A stretch of DNA of 64,000 bases from an uncultured Syntrophomonadaceae bacterium (GCA_964636865.1 CAZWVJ010000006.1:24882-88881), one strand, 5' to 3'. Numbered from the stretch's first letter, positions 52,211 to 59,149 are shown. Numbers and translations: made by a program. Notes: a model not told the origin generated them from the letters alone.

Positions 52211-53656
52211 CTATTCTACCTCCAAGGGGTCATGTTTGTAAACAGGAAAAATAGAAATTATCGCTGAAATTACAATAATCGCAAAAACAAGGAGCACCAG
52301 GATAAATTCTCCCGGGTAATGTTTAGCCGGGTCTATCATTATGCCCATTCTGTCTGCCGTAAAATTATTGATCAAGTAAAGCCCTCCGTAGCTTATCAAA
52401 AACGAGATGACGATACTCACCACGGAAATAATTACCGTCTGCAGGACAAACAGGGAAAAAATGGTTTTCCTTTTTATGCCCAGCAAGCGCATGATCAAAA
52501 TATCTTTTTTGCTGTCCTCCACAAATGAGGCCGTGGTCACGTAAATTACTACTGCTGCCATAAACACTATAATAGCGGCTAGAGCAATCAATACATCCCG
52601 CCCCAGGTTAAGGTTGTCCATTAGATCCCTTAAAACAGTGGTCGGATTGACCGCTTGCACGCCGGGCTTTTCATCAAACTGAGACTTCAGCTCCATATGA
52701 GCAGCAAGCCCTTCTGTGTTCACAATTACCGATACCAGGTCGCCGGTAACTTTTTCATCGTGGTCGTGGTTATGAGCGTGGTCATCATCATGGCTGTGAT
52801 CATCATGGTCATTGTGGTCATGGCCGTGCTCATCATCGTGGGTATGTTCGTCTGCATCGTTGTGGTCATCATCGTGATCATGGTCGTGTCCGTTGTGGTA
52901 ATGGTCATCGTGGTCATGGTGATCATCATGGTCATGATCGTTGTGTTCATCGTCGTGTTCGTGGTCTTCATGCTCGTGTTCGTCATGCTCTTCATGGTCG
53001 TGGTCATGATCGTCATGCTCATGTTCGTGGTCGTCATTACAATCGTCGTGGTCATGGTCGTGAATTACCCAAACGCTTTCGGCAGTCGTAAAGATAACAT
53101 TGTCCGAAGCCGTCCCGCTCCGGTCAAGAATCCCTACTACTTCGTATTCAAACTCGTCATGAACATGTCCGTTTTCTCCAAAACCATGCACTCCTACAAA
53201 AATTTCGCCTATCTCTAAAACTCCCGCATCAGCCACATTGTAGCCGATTACAGCTTCTTCGGTCTCCTCAAACATTTCGCCTGCCTTCAACCCATAATCC
53301 TGCAGGTATCCCGGGACTGTGCCAATAATGGGAATCCCCTGATAGGAATCTCCGGCAGCCATGGGATAGGCTTCCCTTACTGAGGGATTGGCTTTTAGTT
53401 CTTCATAGTATTTGTAAGGAATCGTCCCCAGCGGACTTTCCGTGAAAAACATGCTGGAAAAAACTAGTTCCAAGGGGCTACCTTCGGGACCCACAATGGT
53501 ATCATAGTATCCCGCCGTTGAAATAATGCCTTCCTCTACTTGATGAGCAGTATTATAAGTGATCAACGCAATGGTGGTACACAATATAACCGCTATGCAA
53601 GCAAGCAATGCCCGGGTGAACCTGGTCCGAAGATTTTTTAGCGCAAATTTAATCAT
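52211..53656 (-). CDS. FtsX/MacB-family ABC transporter permease with approximately 100-aa His/Asp/Glu-rich insert in the extracytoplasmic domain
   Basis: 481 aa. N-terminal transmembrane helix, large extracytoplasmic (MacB_PCD-like) domain and C-terminal FtsX four-helix bundle. The insert HDHDHDDCNDDHEHEHDDHDHDHEEHDEHEHEDHEHDDEHNDHDHDDHHDHDDHYHNGHDHDHDDDHNDADEHTHDDEHGHDHNDHDDHSHDDDHAHNHDHDEK lies between the periplasmic domain halves. Confidence 0.8.
   Translation of the reverse strand: MIKFALKNLRTRFTRALLACIAVILCTTIALITYNTAHQVEEGIISTAGYYDTIVGPEGSPLELVFSSMFFTESPLGTIPYKYYEELKANPSVREAYPMAAGDSYQGIPIIGTVPGYLQDYGLKAGEMFEETEEAVIGYNVADAGVLEIGEIFVGVHGFGENGHVHDEFEYEVVGILDRSGTASDNVIFTTAESVWVIHDHDHDDCNDDHEHEHDDHDHDHEEHDEHEHEDHEHDDEHNDHDHDDHHDHDDHYHNGHDHDHDDDHNDADEHTHDDEHGHDHNDHDDHSHDDDHAHNHDHDEKVTGDLVSVIVNTEGLAAHMELKSQFDEKPGVQAVNPTTVLRDLMDNLNLGRDVLIALAAIIVFMAAVVIYVTTASFVEDSKKDILIMRLLGIKRKTIFSLFVLQTVIISVVSIVISFLISYGGLYLINNFTADRMGIMIDPAKHYPGEFILVLLVFAIIVISAIISIFPVYKHDPLEVE
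52726..53055. repeat. Low-complexity (CAY/GAY)n codon repeat that encodes the His/Asp tract
   Basis: The plus strand reads GTGGTCRTGRTCATCATG... for about 330 bp. It generates spurious long ORFs on both strands (52655-53218 plus and 52726-53055 minus). Confidence 0.85.
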
Positions 53657-54309
53657 TATTTCCCCACCTCGCTTAATTCAGCATTCAGTTCCGACATCTC
53701 TATAAAGACGTCAAAATGATCTTTCATATCATAATCATGGGAAACGGTTATTACCGGTATATCAAATTTCTGCGCGTAACCTGCCGTCAAGGACATGATC
53801 TCATCGGCTATCTTCTTATTCAGGTTACCGGTGGGTTCATCCGCCAGTAATACAAGGGGATCTTTGATGAGAGCCCTGGCAATAGCCACACGCTGTTTTT
53901 CTCCCACCGAAAGGGTGGTAACTTTCTTTTTCTTTTTAGGCAAAATCCCCATGATTTCAAGCATTTTATCAATATCCAGTGTTTTCCTTAATTCCAATTC
54001 CAGAAGCTTCAAGTTATCTTCTACGGTCATCTGGTCAAGCAGACGGAAGTCCTGGAAAACGTACCCCACGGAACTCAGGCGGTACTCATCCCGCTTTACG
54101 GGCGTCCACCCGGTAATATCTCTCCCATTGACCACAACTTCCCCGGCATCAGCAGGAATCACGCCGGCAATAATGTTTAGCAGGGTAGATTTTCCACATC
54201 CCGAAGGACCAAAAACGAGGTAGCTTACCCCCTTTTCAAATGTGTATTCGGGAATGTCAATAATTTTTTCATTGTCATAGCTTTTTTGCAGGTTTTTGAT
54301 ATAGATCAT
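53656..54309 (-). CDS. ABC transporter ATP-binding protein (MacB/LolD-type, partner of the FtsX permease)
   Basis: 217 aa. Walker A GPSGCGKST, signature LSVGEKQRV and Walker B LLADEPT. The stop overlaps the permease start (ATGA). Confidence 0.85.
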   Translation of the reverse strand: MIYIKNLQKSYDNEKIIDIPEYTFEKGVSYLVFGPSGCGKSTLLNIIAGVIPADAGEVVVNGRDITGWTPVKRDEYRLSSVGYVFQDFRLLDQMTVEDNLKLLELELRKTLDIDKMLEIMGILPKKKKKVTTLSVGEKQRVAIARALIKDPLVLLADEPTGNLNKKIADEIMSLTAGYAQKFDIPVITVSHDYDMKDHFDVFIEMSELNAELSEVGK

Positions 54310-54516: not shown

Positions 54517-55491
54517 TTAGCCAAGGGCTTCCTCCAATTTCATGGTGTTATATAAAAGAAGTTCTATATAGGAATTTCTATTTTCCAGGTCTTCTCCGCC
54601 TAAAGGATCAAGGTAAGCGACCTCGCCCCCGATTTCTTCCGCCAACTGCTTAGCTACTGCCGGGTTAAGCTGGGGTTCGCAAAAAATCACGCAGGCGCCG
54701 ATTTCCTCTGCGACACCAACCAGTTCAGCCATCCAGGCGGCAGAAGGCTCCTGGCCAGGATAAGGCGCTATAACCGCTGCCTCCTCCAGGCCATACCGGT
54801 CCGCAAAATACTTCCAGGCAGAGTGATAGGTAATAAATTGATTGCTATAAAAGTCGGAAACTTTTTTTTCAATCTCGGCATGGGCCTGCGTCAACTGCTG
54901 CGTATAAAGCTCCCGCTGATCGCTGAAATAATCTTCCTTCGCCGGTTCTGCTTCCGCAAGGACTTTTTCGAGCTTGGGCAAGACTTCATCCCTGACCAGT
55001 AGAGGATCCAACCAAATATGGGGATCACCCCCTTCCTTTTTACACGTGGAGGAATGGTCGGAATTGGCAGTTTCCTCATAGAATTTAGATGGAGAAGACG
55101 CTTCCTTGAGCTGAACTCCCTCGGTTAACTCTACTACTTCCAGATCAGAGGGGGCGGCCTCTATCACCTCAGCAGCCCAATCGTCAAGTCCTCCTCCCAC
55201 GTGAACAAATACGTCCGCTCCGGACATCTTTTTCATTTGCTCCACTGTAGGATCAAAAGTGTGAGGACTGGCACCGGAAGGAAGAAGGTAACTCACTTCT
55301 ACTTCTTTCCCACCGATATTCCGGACGATGTCGGCAAGGGGGAAAATTGTGGTAACTACTTTAACACTCTCTTGCTCATTAACACCCCGGGTATTCTCAT
55401 CACAACCGCATACCCAGAAATTAAGGGAAAATAAAGCAACTAATATTATTAATACTGCCGGTTGAAACTTGCGCATTTTTATCACTCTCAA
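54517..55491 (-). CDS. znuA: Metal (zinc-type) ABC transporter substrate-binding lipoprotein, ZnuA/TroA family
   Basis: 324 aa. Lipobox ...LNFWVCGC. Cluster-9 solute-binding protein fold with DPHIWLDP and a flexible acidic/His loop. Context with znuB, znuC and a Fur-family regulator. Confidence 0.8.
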   Translation of the reverse strand: MRVIKMRKFQPAVLIILVALFSLNFWVCGCDENTRGVNEQESVKVVTTIFPLADIVRNIGGKEVEVSYLLPSGASPHTFDPTVEQMKKMSGADVFVHVGGGLDDWAAEVIEAAPSDLEVVELTEGVQLKEASSPSKFYEETANSDHSSTCKKEGGDPHIWLDPLLVRDEVLPKLEKVLAEAEPAKEDYFSDQRELYTQQLTQAHAEIEKKVSDFYSNQFITYHSAWKYFADRYGLEEAAVIAPYPGQEPSAAWMAELVGVAEEIGACVIFCEPQLNPAVAKQLAEEIGGEVAYLDPLGGEDLENRNSYIELLLYNTMKLEEALG

Positions 55492-55696: not shown

Positions 55697-56149
55697 TTAA
55701 CTGGAAGCGGAACAATGGGGGCAAAGCCCGTAGGCCACCGTAGAATGGGAGTAAATCTTAAACCTGGTGGACGATTCAATATCTTCCACCAGATGTTTGA
55801 AATTGCAGTTGCCAAACTCTACAATACGCTTGCATTCCATGCACACCAGGTGATGGTGATGGTCTTCGGGAAGGATTATTTCATAACGTTGGCGGCCCTC
55901 GGGAAGTTCCAGGGTGTTAACTATATTCAACTGACGAAGCAGATCCATGGTTCGATAAACCGTAGCCACTCCTATACCGGGGTAATCTTTACTCACCTCA
56001 GAATACAGATCATCAATATCCGGATGCCCTTCGGTATGGATCAAAAATTCAATAATGGCCAGGCGGGGTCCTGTTATTTTATAACCATGGTTCTTAATTT
56101 CATTCTTTATTTTTTCCAACAAAGGCCTAAGCCGTGAATTATTTGCCAT
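55697..56149 (-). CDS. zur: Fur-family metalloregulator (probable Zur)
   Basis: 150 aa. Winged-helix N-terminus, HHHH motif, CxxC pairs (CMEC, CPHC). Embedded in the znu locus. Confidence 0.75.
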   Translation of the reverse strand: MANNSRLRPLLEKIKNEIKNHGYKITGPRLAIIEFLIHTEGHPDIDDLYSEVSKDYPGIGVATVYRTMDLLRQLNIVNTLELPEGRQRYEIILPEDHHHHLVCMECKRIVEFGNCNFKHLVEDIESSTRFKIYSHSTVAYGLCPHCSASS

Positions 56150-56268: not shown

Positions 56269-57072
56269 TTACCTTTTGTACAACCACGAAAGGCCAAACA
56301 AAACGGTCATGGTAAGCACAATTGAAGCTCCCGAAGGAACATTGAGATAATATGAAATTACCAATCCCCCCAGGCAACCCATCATACCAACCACTACCGC
56401 AATAACAAGCAAAGAGCGGTAATGCCGGGAAAGTCGGTAACCTGTGGCAGCGGGAATGACCAGCAAAGCTGCAGCCAGTACTATACCCACCACCTGCACA
56501 GAAACCATTATGGTAACACCCACAGCTGCCATTAAAGCAAGATAAAGCGGAGTTACAGGCAGGCCACCAGCCACAGCCGCCTCTTCATCAAAACAAATGG
56601 CCAGCAACTCTCTAAAAAATAAAAGGAGGAAAGCCAGCACTACTACCATGGCTACAGCCAGAATAACGAGATCTTGCCGAGACACCGCCAGAATGTTTCC
56701 GAAAAGCAGGGAAAAAAGTTCAGGATAATACCCCCGGGCATAGCTGATAATCCCAATGCCCAAAGCCATACCGGAAGAAAAGAATATCCCGATGATGGTG
56801 TCTTCATTGATACGGGTACTACGGCTAATCTGACCGGTAATTACGGCTACAGCCACCGCAAAAATGCTGCCGGTAAAAACAGGACTTACACCCGAAACCA
56901 GCCCTATGGCAATGCCCCCCAGGGCAGAATGGGATACCCCTACCCCCAGAAAAGAAAGCCGCTTCATTACCACAAAAAAAGAAACTAAAGAACACAACAG
57001 CCCGATCATAATCGCAGCCAGCAAAGCATGTTGCATAAAAGTAAAAGAAAACATCTCAATCATGGTGTTCAT
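56269..57072 (-). CDS. znuB: Metal ABC transporter permease (ABC-3/ZnuB family)
   Basis: 267 aa polytopic membrane protein typical of ZnuB/MntB permeases. It overlaps the upstream ATPase gene by 17 nt. Confidence 0.8.
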   Translation of the reverse strand: MNTMIEMFSFTFMQHALLAAIMIGLLCSLVSFFVVMKRLSFLGVGVSHSALGGIAIGLVSGVSPVFTGSIFAVAVAVITGQISRSTRINEDTIIGIFFSSGMALGIGIISYARGYYPELFSLLFGNILAVSRQDLVILAVAMVVVLAFLLLFFRELLAICFDEEAAVAGGLPVTPLYLALMAAVGVTIMVSVQVVGIVLAAALLVIPAATGYRLSRHYRSLLVIAVVVGMMGCLGGLVISYYLNVPSGASIVLTMTVLFGLSWLYKR

Positions 57073-57805
57073 CTCCCGCCCTTAAATAGTCAAATTGGCA
57101 TTGATACGCATCCTCCAGTTGGGAGCTATGCAAAACATCCGCCGGGTTGCCGTGAATATGCATATACCTGTTAATACATATTAACGAAGTGGCATAAGGG
57201 ATTATGCCGGTGAGTTCATGATAGATAAGCAAAACGGTCATTTGACGTTCTCGCTTCAAGCGGTCCAACAGCTCCATGAAAGATTGTTTGGCCGGAAAAT
57301 CCAGGCCGGCTACCGGTTCATCCAGGAAAAGAATGCGAGGCTGATGAACCATGGCTCTGGCCAAAAGGACCCGCTGCTGCTCTCCTCCGGAAAGTTCCGG
57401 GAAAGGACGGTTGATATAGTTTTCCATCCCCACATCCCTTAACACTTCTTTAACCTTAAGTTCAAGGTTTTTAGACCTCTGTAAAATAGCAGGCGTTTTC
57501 AGGGAAAGAAGTCCCATGGAGACCACATCTCTCACCGAAACGGGGAAACGCTGCTCGTAAGTATGACGCTGGGGCAAGTAACCGATAATATTTTTTGTTT
57601 TCCCAAGTTGATGGGCCGGTTTACCCAGTATCAAAACCCTGCCACTGCGTGTTGGTATTAAACCCAGTAACATCCGCAAAAGAGTGGTCTTCCCTGCTCC
57701 ATTAGGGCCGATTATACCTACTACATCTCCTTGATTGACCTGAAAATTAATATCACTTAAGACCTCTTTCTTGTTTAATTCTACATAGGCGTTTTCTACT
57801 GAAAT
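57056..57805 (-). CDS. znuC: Metal ABC transporter ATP-binding protein (ZnuC-like); the start codon is unresolved
   Basis: Walker A GPNGAGKTTL, signature LSGGEQQRV and Walker B LFLDEP. The reading frame is open upstream to a stop at 57884-57886. The only ATG/GTG/TTG in that stretch is the TTG at 57679 chosen by the track, and it lies inside the Walker A motif. The upper coordinate given here is a provisional ATT codon (encoding LISVENAYVEL...). Confidence 0.55.
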   Translation of the reverse strand: MSVENAYVELNKKEVLSDINFQVNQGDVVGIIGPNGAGKTTLLRMLLGLIPTRSGRVLILGKPAHQLGKTKNIIGYLPQRHTYEQRFPVSVRDVVSMGLLSLKTPAILQRSKNLELKVKEVLRDVGMENYINRPFPELSGGEQQRVLLARAMVHQPRILFLDEPVAGLDFPAKQSFMELLDRLKRERQMTVLLIYHELTGIIPYATSLICINRYMHIHGNPADVLHSSQLEDAYQCQFDYLRAGDEHHD

Positions 57806-58165
57806 GAGCGGGGTATAATCTTTGTCTTTAGGTATCTTAAAAGCAGCGATAAAAAACTCCCCTCTCCAAATATAATCATGATTTCACAACCAGCCGTTCA
57901 TCCATTTAATATTAACAATTCTAACTATTAAAAGCAAAGGAACCGATTATGCTGGGAGTGCGGTTAATATAGCTGCCAAAGGGTTCTTTTTATTTATTAT
58001 TCCCATTTATCTACTAAAATTATACACACCCAATATGCGCCCACTCAGCACCTTCCTAATAATGAAAACTTCCATTGTTACCATAGGGATATTTCAAGTG
58101 GGGATAGAGATTATCTCATCAATTTTCCAGGCCTGATTTCAATGCCCTTTGCATTTGCAATAGGA

Positions 58166-59149
58166 TCACCCGGGAAGAAGTCGATACATCGCTGCAGCTG
58201 CTCTCCGGATAACCTCCACCTTTCGCGAACGTAGAGGCATCCGGGGGTATGCGCCGGAAACTACTTCCAACCACTTTTCCGGATTAGATGCATTAAGTAT
58301 TCCTTCCAGGCTAAATATAGCAATGTCTTGGACGCCTGCTTCCAGGGCAGCTTCAATATCCGGAAGCATTTCTTCCGGATATTGATAATAAGGCTCATTT
58401 CCCAATTTTCCGGTGGAAGTCAGCCCCACCGAAACAGCAGCCCGTTTTCCCAATACAGCCTTTATATTCAAGCAAAGCAAATAAAGATACCAGCGCGCAT
58501 CTCCGAGGCTAATAAATTCCCGGGACATCCCCGTAATCAAAGTATTGTACTGCATAAAAGAAATAACATCCCAATTTACAGGGCTTAAAGGGGTTTCCAG
58601 GTAATCCTGTAATTTCACCGATCCTTTCATAATATCGATTTCCAGCAGAGGAATGGCGGGGACAATAGTTTGGCACCCTTGCATCATAATATAATCTTGC
58701 AAATCTCGATATGTTTCAACTGCCCGATTAAAGCGCTCCCGGTTTCTGTTAGAATTGAAAATTTGCCACATCTTGCCGGCTTTTTGTAACCCCTCAGCAC
58801 TGCTGATCTCTGTGTGTTGATAATAAGGGGGTTCCAAATCTACTGCCAGCCAAGGAATTTTCACCCCTTCTTTATCCGCCCATTTAAAAATCTCTTTTAC
58901 ATAAGACGCAAACTCTTCGCAGTTTCTTTCGTTGGGCCAGTAACCTTGCTCATCGCTCATAGTCGGCCATAAGGCAGGTTCAAGTCCTGCGTCCCTATAT
59001 TTTCTCATAAGCTTTGCATAATCTTTCCCCAAATTACCGCGGGAAACAGCAATGCAGGGATTTACTCCATAATGCTGCAGTAGATATACTACTTCCGACT
59101 TGATTAACTCACCCGGGGGAAGAAATTCCGCCCACGCCCTCAAGATCAT
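58166..59149 (-). CDS. Hypothetical protein (possibly glycoside-hydrolase-like TIM barrel)
   Basis: 327 aa. No recognisable signature motif. Alternating beta/alpha character. Function unknown. Confidence 0.35.
   Translation of the reverse strand: MILRAWAEFLPPGELIKSEVVYLLQHYGVNPCIAVSRGNLGKDYAKLMRKYRDAGLEPALWPTMSDEQGYWPNERNCEEFASYVKEIFKWADKEGVKIPWLAVDLEPPYYQHTEISSAEGLQKAGKMWQIFNSNRNRERFNRAVETYRDLQDYIMMQGCQTIVPAIPLLEIDIMKGSVKLQDYLETPLSPVNWDVISFMQYNTLITGMSREFISLGDARWYLYLLCLNIKAVLGKRAAVSVGLTSTGKLGNEPYYQYPEEMLPDIEAALEAGVQDIAIFSLEGILNASNPEKWLEVVSGAYPRMPLRSRKVEVIRRAAAAMYRLLPG

Follow-up and report, generated by a model that had tools for sequence, protein, structure and literature searches.

Near-cognate start codons of the AUH type (AUA, AUC and AUU) are discriminated against by the initiation factor IF3. 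Several bacterial genes that begin with such codons have been described. In Staphylococcus aureus, AUU and AUA starts combined with extended Shine-Dalgarno (SD) sequences (in infC, cvfC1, ccpN and citZ) give about 10% of the output of AUG in reporters (PMC13009471), and in Escherichia coli the codons AUA, AUC and AUU yield 1–2% of AUG output (10.1101/063800). The AUC start of Deinococcus dnaA has been validated by N-terminal proteomics (PMC2830850), and Enterococcus faecalis ebpA starts at ATT, the annotated downstream canonical codon having been shown not to be the start (PMC4447247). Here, we characterize a znuC-like gene—encoding the ATPase of a metal ABC transporter—in a 64,000-nucleotide stretch of DNA from an uncultured Syntrophomonadaceae bacterium (GCA_964636865.1, CAZWVJ010000006.1:24882–88881; the whole stretch is hereafter called the window, with positions counted from its first letter). 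The gene has no canonical start codon upstream of its ATP-binding motif, and the layout of its leader points to initiation at an AUC codon. Literature searches on start-codon peculiarities of znuC turned up no znuC-type gene with a reported non-canonical start.

An intact ATPase gene without a canonical start codon

The reading frame of the znuC-like gene is defined by four elements:

57056–57850, minus strand: proposed full-length coding sequence (264 codons and a stop) for the znuC-like ATPase of the metal ABC transporter, from ATC 57850–57848 to TGA 57058–57056
57884–57886, minus strand: in-frame TGA that closes the znuC frame upstream; an identical TGA is present in the related locus L002
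57686–57709, minus strand: Walker A P-loop GPNGAGKT, invariant in the clade alignment and upstream of TTG 57679
57677–57679, minus strand: TTG, the first canonical in-frame codon, 3' of Walker A, with an SD energy of −5.6 kcal/mol; chosen by the mechanical open reading frame (ORF) list (207 aa)

Translation of the minus strand from 57886 to 57056 gives a stop followed by NHDYIWRGEFFIAAFKIPKDKDYTPLISVENAYVELNKKEVLSDINFQVNQGDVVGIIGPNGAGKTTLLRM..., and the frame then stays open. A codon-by-codon listing of the interval from TGA 57886–57884 to TTG 57679–57677 contains no in-frame ATG, GTG, TTG or CTG. The first-pass annotation of this DNA had proposed that the gene lacks a canonical start upstream of Walker A, that its frame is open from the stop at 57884–57886, and that TTG 57679, the codon used by the ORF track, is the only canonical start codon in the leader; the translation and the listing bear out all three statements. 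It had further pointed out that a start at this TTG removes Walker A. The positions agree: the motif (57709–57686) lies upstream of the TTG, so that a TTG start would delete the P-loop.

The gene is otherwise complete. PF00005 (ABC_tran) matches residues 42–192 of the open frame (E = 2.8e-32), and in a clade alignment, in which the gene is full-length with its relatives, Walker A, the Q-loop, the signature LSGGEQQR, Walker B and the H-loop histidine are all present. A profile search of genome contigs returned one close relative, distributed over two contigs (L002 and L003), together with six other, distant loci. L002 (PUKQ01000167, from the Syntrophomonadaceae metagenome-assembled genome of isolate B1Sed10_75) shares 89% amino-acid identity with the window gene and represents a different species. 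Across the 44 codons from the residues PLI to the codon before TTG 57679, the comparison with L002 gives nine synonymous and three non-synonymous substitutions (a ratio of non-synonymous to synonymous rates, dN/dS, of 0.08). The ratio is 0.14 when the comparison extends from PLI as far as the L002 contig reaches, and 0.08 across the C-terminal 99 codons when compared with L003. Since dN/dS is 0.08 upstream of TTG 57679, this segment is translated and constrained, and readings in which the protein is truncated or the gene is decayed fail. The gene is not a pseudogene; it is intact and under purifying selection.

Nor is the absence of a canonical start codon a sequencing or assembly error: the sequence is genuine. 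Over 600 nt, the window matches the Logan assembly of run SRR9330143 (L001) at 100% identity, and it matches that of run SRR16248206 (L097), also at 100% identity, from the promoter through the leader to the P-loop. Both include the run of six T (T6) that lies in the leader; the two runs have unrelated accession numbers, and the window record may itself derive from one of them. The first-pass annotation had suggested aligning orthologues to look for an indel that restores an ATG or GTG start; none was found in L002. From the TGA to the P-loop, L002 aligns with zero indels, and it has the same TGA, the same frame and no canonical codon upstream of PLISVEN. In addition, the T-run is interrupted in L002 (TTTTCT versus T6 in the window). 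Because the second species combines the same frame with a broken T-run, neither a homopolymer error nor a private frameshift can explain the layout. Thus, an intact, conserved metal-uptake ATPase gene has no canonical start codon.

A strong Shine-Dalgarno sequence upstream of an AUC codon

Three contiguous elements of the leader bear on where translation begins:

57857–57867, minus strand: SD sequence GGAGAGGGGAG, −12.8 kcal/mol; conserved as GGAAGGGGGAG in L002
57851–57856, minus strand: T6 spacer between the SD sequence and ATC; identical in L001 and L097, TTTTCT in L002
57848–57850, minus strand: ATC, the proposed near-cognate initiation codon, at which the anti-SD duplex is stronger than at any other codon of the leader

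SD energies were calculated for every in-frame codon of the leader, and pairing reaches its maximum at ATC 57850 (−12.8 kcal/mol). The values for the other candidates are −7.2 (ATT 57871), −1.1 (ATA 57835), −2.4 (ATT 57805), −5.6 (TTG 57679) and −4.4 kcal/mol (ATG 57673). For reference, SD sequences in this genome are strong: at clear gene starts of the window, pairing with the 3' end of the 16S rRNA amounts to about −9 to −16.6 kcal/mol, and that of GGAGAGGGGAG is slightly better than most of these. The ATC lies 6 nt from the end of the purine run and 7 nt from the GGAGG-equivalent core, which is within the functional spacing (about 5–9 nt) for a near-cognate codon after a strong SD sequence. 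A protein begun here would carry a 13-residue tail before PLI, comparable in length to the tails of relatives. Folding of the leader predicts no stable structure (z = +1.1 against shuffled sequences), and an Rfam scan of 57500–58300 identified no family, the sole match being a spurious, sub-threshold long non-coding RNA.

Both non-canonical candidates named in the first-pass annotation (ATT 57805–57803 and ATC 57850–57848) are present, as is the ribosome-binding run GGAGAGGGGAG at 57867–57857 followed by six T. The two candidates fare differently. The ATT at 57805 has an SD energy of −2.4 kcal/mol only, and a start there would drop conserved residues. The ATC, 6 nt after GGAGAGGGGAG, is supported by the best anti-SD pairing and by the retention of its position, as ATA or ATT, in three related lineages (see below). 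Translation therefore most likely starts at the near-cognate AUC 57850–57848, directed by the strong SD sequence.

The same layout in related loci

Further contigs were obtained by a ZnuB-based search and by cluster look-ups. Five of the loci (L094, L095, L096, L098 and L099) begin inside znuC and are uninformative with regard to its start. The remainder of the clade can be aligned with GGAGAGGGGAG of the window as follows, with SD energies in kcal/mol:

L002: GGAAGGGGGAG-TTTTCT-ATA, −14.2; downstream GTG, −0.3
L010 and its near-identical ENA counterpart L093: AAAGGAGG-CCTTTTT-ATT, −12.1; downstream TTG, −0.8
L011: AAGGGGTG-TTTTT-ATT, −11.1; downstream TTG, −1.7
L012: AGGGGGG...ATG, −10.2; the ATG is the start itself

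In each of four lineage representatives (the window, L002, L010/L093 and L011), the peak of anti-SD energy coincides exactly with the AUH codon. A non-canonical start is thus conserved among the orthologues—as ATA in L002 and as ATT in L010, L093 and L011—with L012 and its ATG as the exception. The downstream GTG and TTG codons of the relatives have essentially no SD sequence, and the TTG of L010 and L093 is the codon for the conserved Leu of PLI; two of these downstream codons are used by gene callers. For the gene of the window, the public gene calls P0001 (205 aa) and P0250 (207 aa) start at downstream canonical codons and are devoid of the P-loop; in relatives, the calls P0002 and P0003 begin at an SD-less TTG downstream of an SD-backed ATT. 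The public gene calls of the family are systematically wrong in this clade (L001, L097, L010 and L011).

A control set of 70 fetched loci, mostly distant relatives, was assembled from profile searches of genome and metagenome contigs. The metagenome-contig search, made with the clade alignment, matched the generic motifs IGPNGAGK and SGGEQQRV and returned relatives of at most 39% identity, which were reused as controls. All ABC ATPase genes in these loci (72 of 72) have a canonical start 28–75 codons before Walker A. Among the fetched loci, L002, L010, L093 and L011, all members of the clade, are the only ones that combine a strong SD sequence and an AUH codon with the lack of any SD-backed canonical start. 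Within the 64-kb window, the znuC-like gene is the only long ORF with the SD-backed AUH signature.

Several observations weigh against initiation at AUC 57850. Firstly, the motif is common by chance: a 5-mer SD-like motif followed by ATH in an open frame occurs inside genes in 34 cases in the 64-kb window, and approximately 4.5% of random 75-nt windows hold a fixed-frame ATH with an SD energy of −11 kcal/mol or better. The argument hence rests on position and conservation, and not on the motif alone. Secondly, the 13-codon tail between the ATC and PLI is free of coding constraint (eight non-synonymous substitutions and one synonymous substitution versus L002), and in the 11 codons between the TGA and the ATC, substitutions versus L002 fall at all three codon positions (1, 3 and 3). 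With the tail unconstrained, conservation by itself cannot fix the exact coding start within the leader. Thirdly, L002 retains ATT 57871 as well (ATT at 2835), with weak SD-like pairing in both (−7.2 kcal/mol in the window, −8.6 in L002). Finally, the feature is present in no more than three independent lineages, and a further one (L012) has an ATG; all relatives are uncultured metagenome sequences.

Alternative readings of the leader

Of the alternatives, a start at another near-cognate codon of the leader (ATT 57871–57869, ATA 57835–57833 or ATT 57805–57803) survives best, and we consider it unlikely. The conservation and weak pairing of ATT 57871 speak for this option, as does the unconstrained N-terminal tail, which leaves the exact start unfixed by conservation. 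However, ribosomes starting at ATT 57871 would have to translate through the strongest SD sequence of the region; ATA 57835 and ATT 57805 have essentially no SD sequence, and the former is ACA in L002. Moreover, L010, L093 and L011 have one SD-backed AUH codon apiece, and in each case it lies at the position equivalent to ATC 57850.

A second alternative invokes an additional feature of the leader:

57877–57879, minus strand: out-of-frame ATG, opening a 27-codon overlapping ORF (MIIFGEGSFLSLLLRYLKTKIIPRSFQ, then a stop); TTG at the equivalent position of L002, no equivalent in L010, L093 or L011

Translation could begin at this ATG and enter the znuC frame by a programmed −1 frameshift. The pattern X_XXY_YYZ is the classical −1 frameshift heptamer, and in the frame of ATG 57879 the T6 run together with A57850 reads T_TTT_TTA (57856–57850), which fits it; the 27-codon ORF spans this site, and L002 has a TTG where the window has the ATG. 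We nevertheless regard frameshifting as improbable. The heptamer is T_TTT_CTA in L002, which is not slippery in the A site, and there is no upstream overlapping ORF in L010, L093 or L011, such that neither the heptamer nor the ORF is conserved. The stimulatory elements are missing as well: in dnaX, −1 shifting is stimulated by an SD-like element about 10–14 nt upstream of the heptamer, whereas here the SD-like run abuts the heptamer (0 nt between the two), and no stable structure is predicted downstream of it (z = +1.1). Finally, ATG 57879 itself does not have a good SD sequence.

The first-pass annotation had offered two explanations without ranking them: (i) a non-canonical start, and (ii) a frameshift, sequencing error or pseudogene. 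The first is supported; the second is contradicted by the identical assemblies, the zero indels versus a second species, and purifying selection. In its most specific form, the second explanation holds that the gene is separated from ATG 57879 by an error of one base, made in the sequencing or assembly of the T6 run, or by a recent frameshift mutation that has turned it into a pseudogene. One extra T would indeed put this ATG into the znuC frame, and homopolymers are typical sites of indel errors. The two run assemblies (one of which may be the source of the window record) agree on the run, however, and L002 has the same frame relationship, with an interrupted T-run and zero indels; strong purifying selection and the intact ABC motifs speak against a pseudogene. 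On this evidence, an error or recent mutation is very improbable.

That the annotation is correct, with a truncated protein made from TTG 57679 or ATG 57673, is hardly credible. No other canonical codons are available, and it is these that the gene callers used (P0001 and P0250), but the SD sequences of both are weak (−5.6 and −4.4 kcal/mol), the 44 constrained codons upstream of the TTG include the P-loop, and an ABC ATPase lacking its P-loop cannot bind ATP. The probability is close to nil that TGA 57886 is read through or recoded from a start at the in-frame ATG 57901 (ATG AAC GGC TGG TTG TGA lies in frame directly upstream), given that L002 has no equivalent ATG and carries ATG-TGA only, that this genome terminates genes with TGA, among them znuC itself at the point where homologues also end, and that ATG 57901 lies at or before the inferred transcription start.

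An alternative genetic code was ruled out separately: TGA terminates znuC where its homologues end.

Operon context and transporter identity

The znuC-like gene is followed by three genes of a metal-uptake operon:

56269–57063, minus strand: ABC-3 family permease (znuB-like), overlapping the znuC end by 8 nt (ATGATTGA)
55697–56149, minus strand: Fur-family regulator; best matches PerR and Fur, below curated cut-offs; PF01475 in the gene calls of relatives
54517–55491, minus strand: ZnuA/AztC-family substrate-binding protein; PF01297 recorded in relatives

A 17-nt overlap between znuC and znuB, with the permease starting at ATG 57072, had previously been assumed. The permease probably starts at ATG 57063 rather than 57072: the former has the better SD sequence, giving an overlap of 8 nt, as in the gene calls of L001, L010 and L012. 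The regulator and binding protein genes have SD sequences of their own.

Judging by its ABC ATPase domain with all five motifs, and by an operon comprising an ABC-3 permease, a ZnuA-family protein and a metal-responsive regulator, the gene is the ATPase subunit of a Zn/Mn-type metal ABC importer. The NCBIfam equivalog cut-offs are missed for both ZnuC (NF007090, 135.7 versus 306) and AztA (NF040873, 151 versus 220). Zinc specificity is therefore not established, and the name ZnuC is provisional. More generally, the best-scoring models for the ATPase, permease and binding protein are a mixture of Azt, Mnt and Znu types, all below curated cut-offs, and the regulator is closer to PerR and Fur models than to Zur. 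In the H-loop region (57200–57215, LLIYHELTG), the window and the L003 lineage carry YHE in place of the SHD of other clade members, with the switch histidine retained.

Two neighbouring features lie outside the operon. A MacB/FtsX-type ABC exporter pair (ATPase of 217 aa, permease of 481 aa) occupies 52211–54309 on the minus strand, after the metal operon, and this synteny recurs in L093, L095 and L097. Directly upstream of the operon, also on the minus strand, is an ORF of 327 aa (58166–59149); it has no NCBIfam match, and is likewise found upstream in L002 and L097.

Candidate promoter and operator

Two overlapping elements were identified upstream of the leader:

57909–57937, minus strand: candidate sigma-70-type promoter, proposed from consensus only; TTGCTT (57937–57932), a 17-nt spacer and TGt-TAATAT (−10 box 57914–57909)
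57905–57932, read on the minus strand: 28-bp imperfect palindrome with 14-nt arms, TTTAATAGTTAGAA and TTGTTAATATTAAA, 79% complementary and with no gap between them

The promoter block is nearly identical in L002. A promoter scan of the minus strand reported none, and the −35 hexamer TTGCTT matches at three of six positions. The palindrome, also nearly identical in L002, covers the promoter spacer and the −10 box. We propose the palindrome as a candidate operator of the operon's own Fur-family regulator; promoter and palindrome together would point to repression by this protein.

A second block conserved in L002 lies further upstream, at 58010–58050 on the minus strand. It contains a perfect TATAAT (58024–58019), located some 170 nt ahead of the ATC, lacks a convincing −35 hexamer and matches no Rfam family; it could be a second promoter with a long leader, or another element. 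In both species, a start codon directly precedes the in-frame TGA: TTG-TGA in the window (57884–57889) and ATG-TGA in L002 (approximately 2817–2822). Such a minimal start-stop pair, close to where the transcript is inferred to begin, may have arisen by chance in the window and L002.

A possible role for a weak start codon

The mechanism that we infer from the layout of the locus encompasses initiation at the AUC, an N-terminal methionine, lowered output, translational coupling to the permease and any selective purpose. In this mechanism, the strong SD sequence GGAGAGGGGAG would place the 30S subunit with the AUC in its P site, where the initiator tRNA would read the codon despite the third-position mismatch, giving a protein with the N-terminus formylmethionine-AAFKIPKDKDYTPLISVEN.... 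A near-cognate start of this type would lead to low, IF3-sensitive synthesis of the ATPase. Given the 8-nt overlap between the end of the ATPase gene and the beginning of the permease gene, the permease would be translationally coupled and throttled jointly; the regulator and binding protein, with ribosome-binding sites of their own, would escape this effect, leaving the binding protein in excess over the transporter from a single operon. By analogy with described AUH starts, the codon probably throttles both ZnuC and the coupled permease.

It is more doubtful that the weak AUH start is actively kept by selection, rather than tolerated. The idea arises because the codon varies between AUC, AUA and AUU, with AUG in only one of four lineages despite ample time for the single third-base substitution that would create it; synonymous divergence from L093 is saturated. 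If selection is at work, synthesis of the importer core (ATPase and permease) would depend on the level of IF3 or the state of the ribosome. This would amount to post-transcriptional control atop Fur-family repression, either setting a low ratio of transporter to binding protein from the same transcript or tying uptake to translational capacity.

Irrespective of selection, the start proposed here is an annotation correction for a functional metal importer that would otherwise be scored as broken or mis-modelled. Retained non-canonical starts in bacteria form a short list, so far made up mostly of regulators and of translation or replication factors; this conserved AUC/AUA/AUU start would extend it to a transporter operon from uncultured Bacillota. 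The locus supports the idea that strong SD sequences in Bacillota license weak start codons for expression tuning, and provides a simple test case for genes of a single operon being translated at different levels (low for the ATPase and permease, high for the binding protein).

Comparison with known systems

With the ZnuC, AztA and MntA ATPases of cluster A-I importers, the window gene shares the ABC_tran domain, the motifs and an operon that includes a permease, a ZnuA-family protein and a Fur-family regulator. It differs from ZnuC and AztA in falling below the equivalog cut-offs, and from the other ABC ATPases of the fetched loci in that all of those have canonical starts.

With regard to the start itself, the S. 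aureus genes are similar in being from Bacillota, in having an AUH codon at optimal spacing after a strong SD sequence, in their conservation among relatives, and in the attenuated translation to be expected; one of them is, like the znuC-like gene, the first gene of its operon. The differences are that the codon here is AUC, that the product is a metal importer ATPase rather than a regulator or IF3, and that the start is predicted from sequence. Furthermore, compared with the extended SD sequences of S. aureus, the pairing here (−12.8 kcal/mol) is only slightly stronger than that of a typical gene start in the window. Deinococcus dnaA resembles the window gene in several respects: the same ATC codon serves a conserved gene of housekeeping type, is kept across species, and is missed by automatic annotation, which mis-starts the gene. 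It belongs to a different phylum and is a different gene, and its start is proven by mass spectrometry, whereas the one proposed here is predicted from the nucleotide sequence.

Expression of E. coli infC and pcnB (both AUU) and of E. faecalis ebpA (ATT) is limited by the weakness of their start codons. As in the znuC clade, infC retains a non-AUG start but not a fixed codon, which may be AUU or AUA; infC is autoregulated via IF3, and we know of no IF3-type feedback for a metal importer. Overall, the znuC-like gene most likely belongs, on the evidence of its leader and of the related loci, to the near-cognate AUH-start type represented by infC, pcnB, ebpA, ccpN and Deinococcus dnaA.

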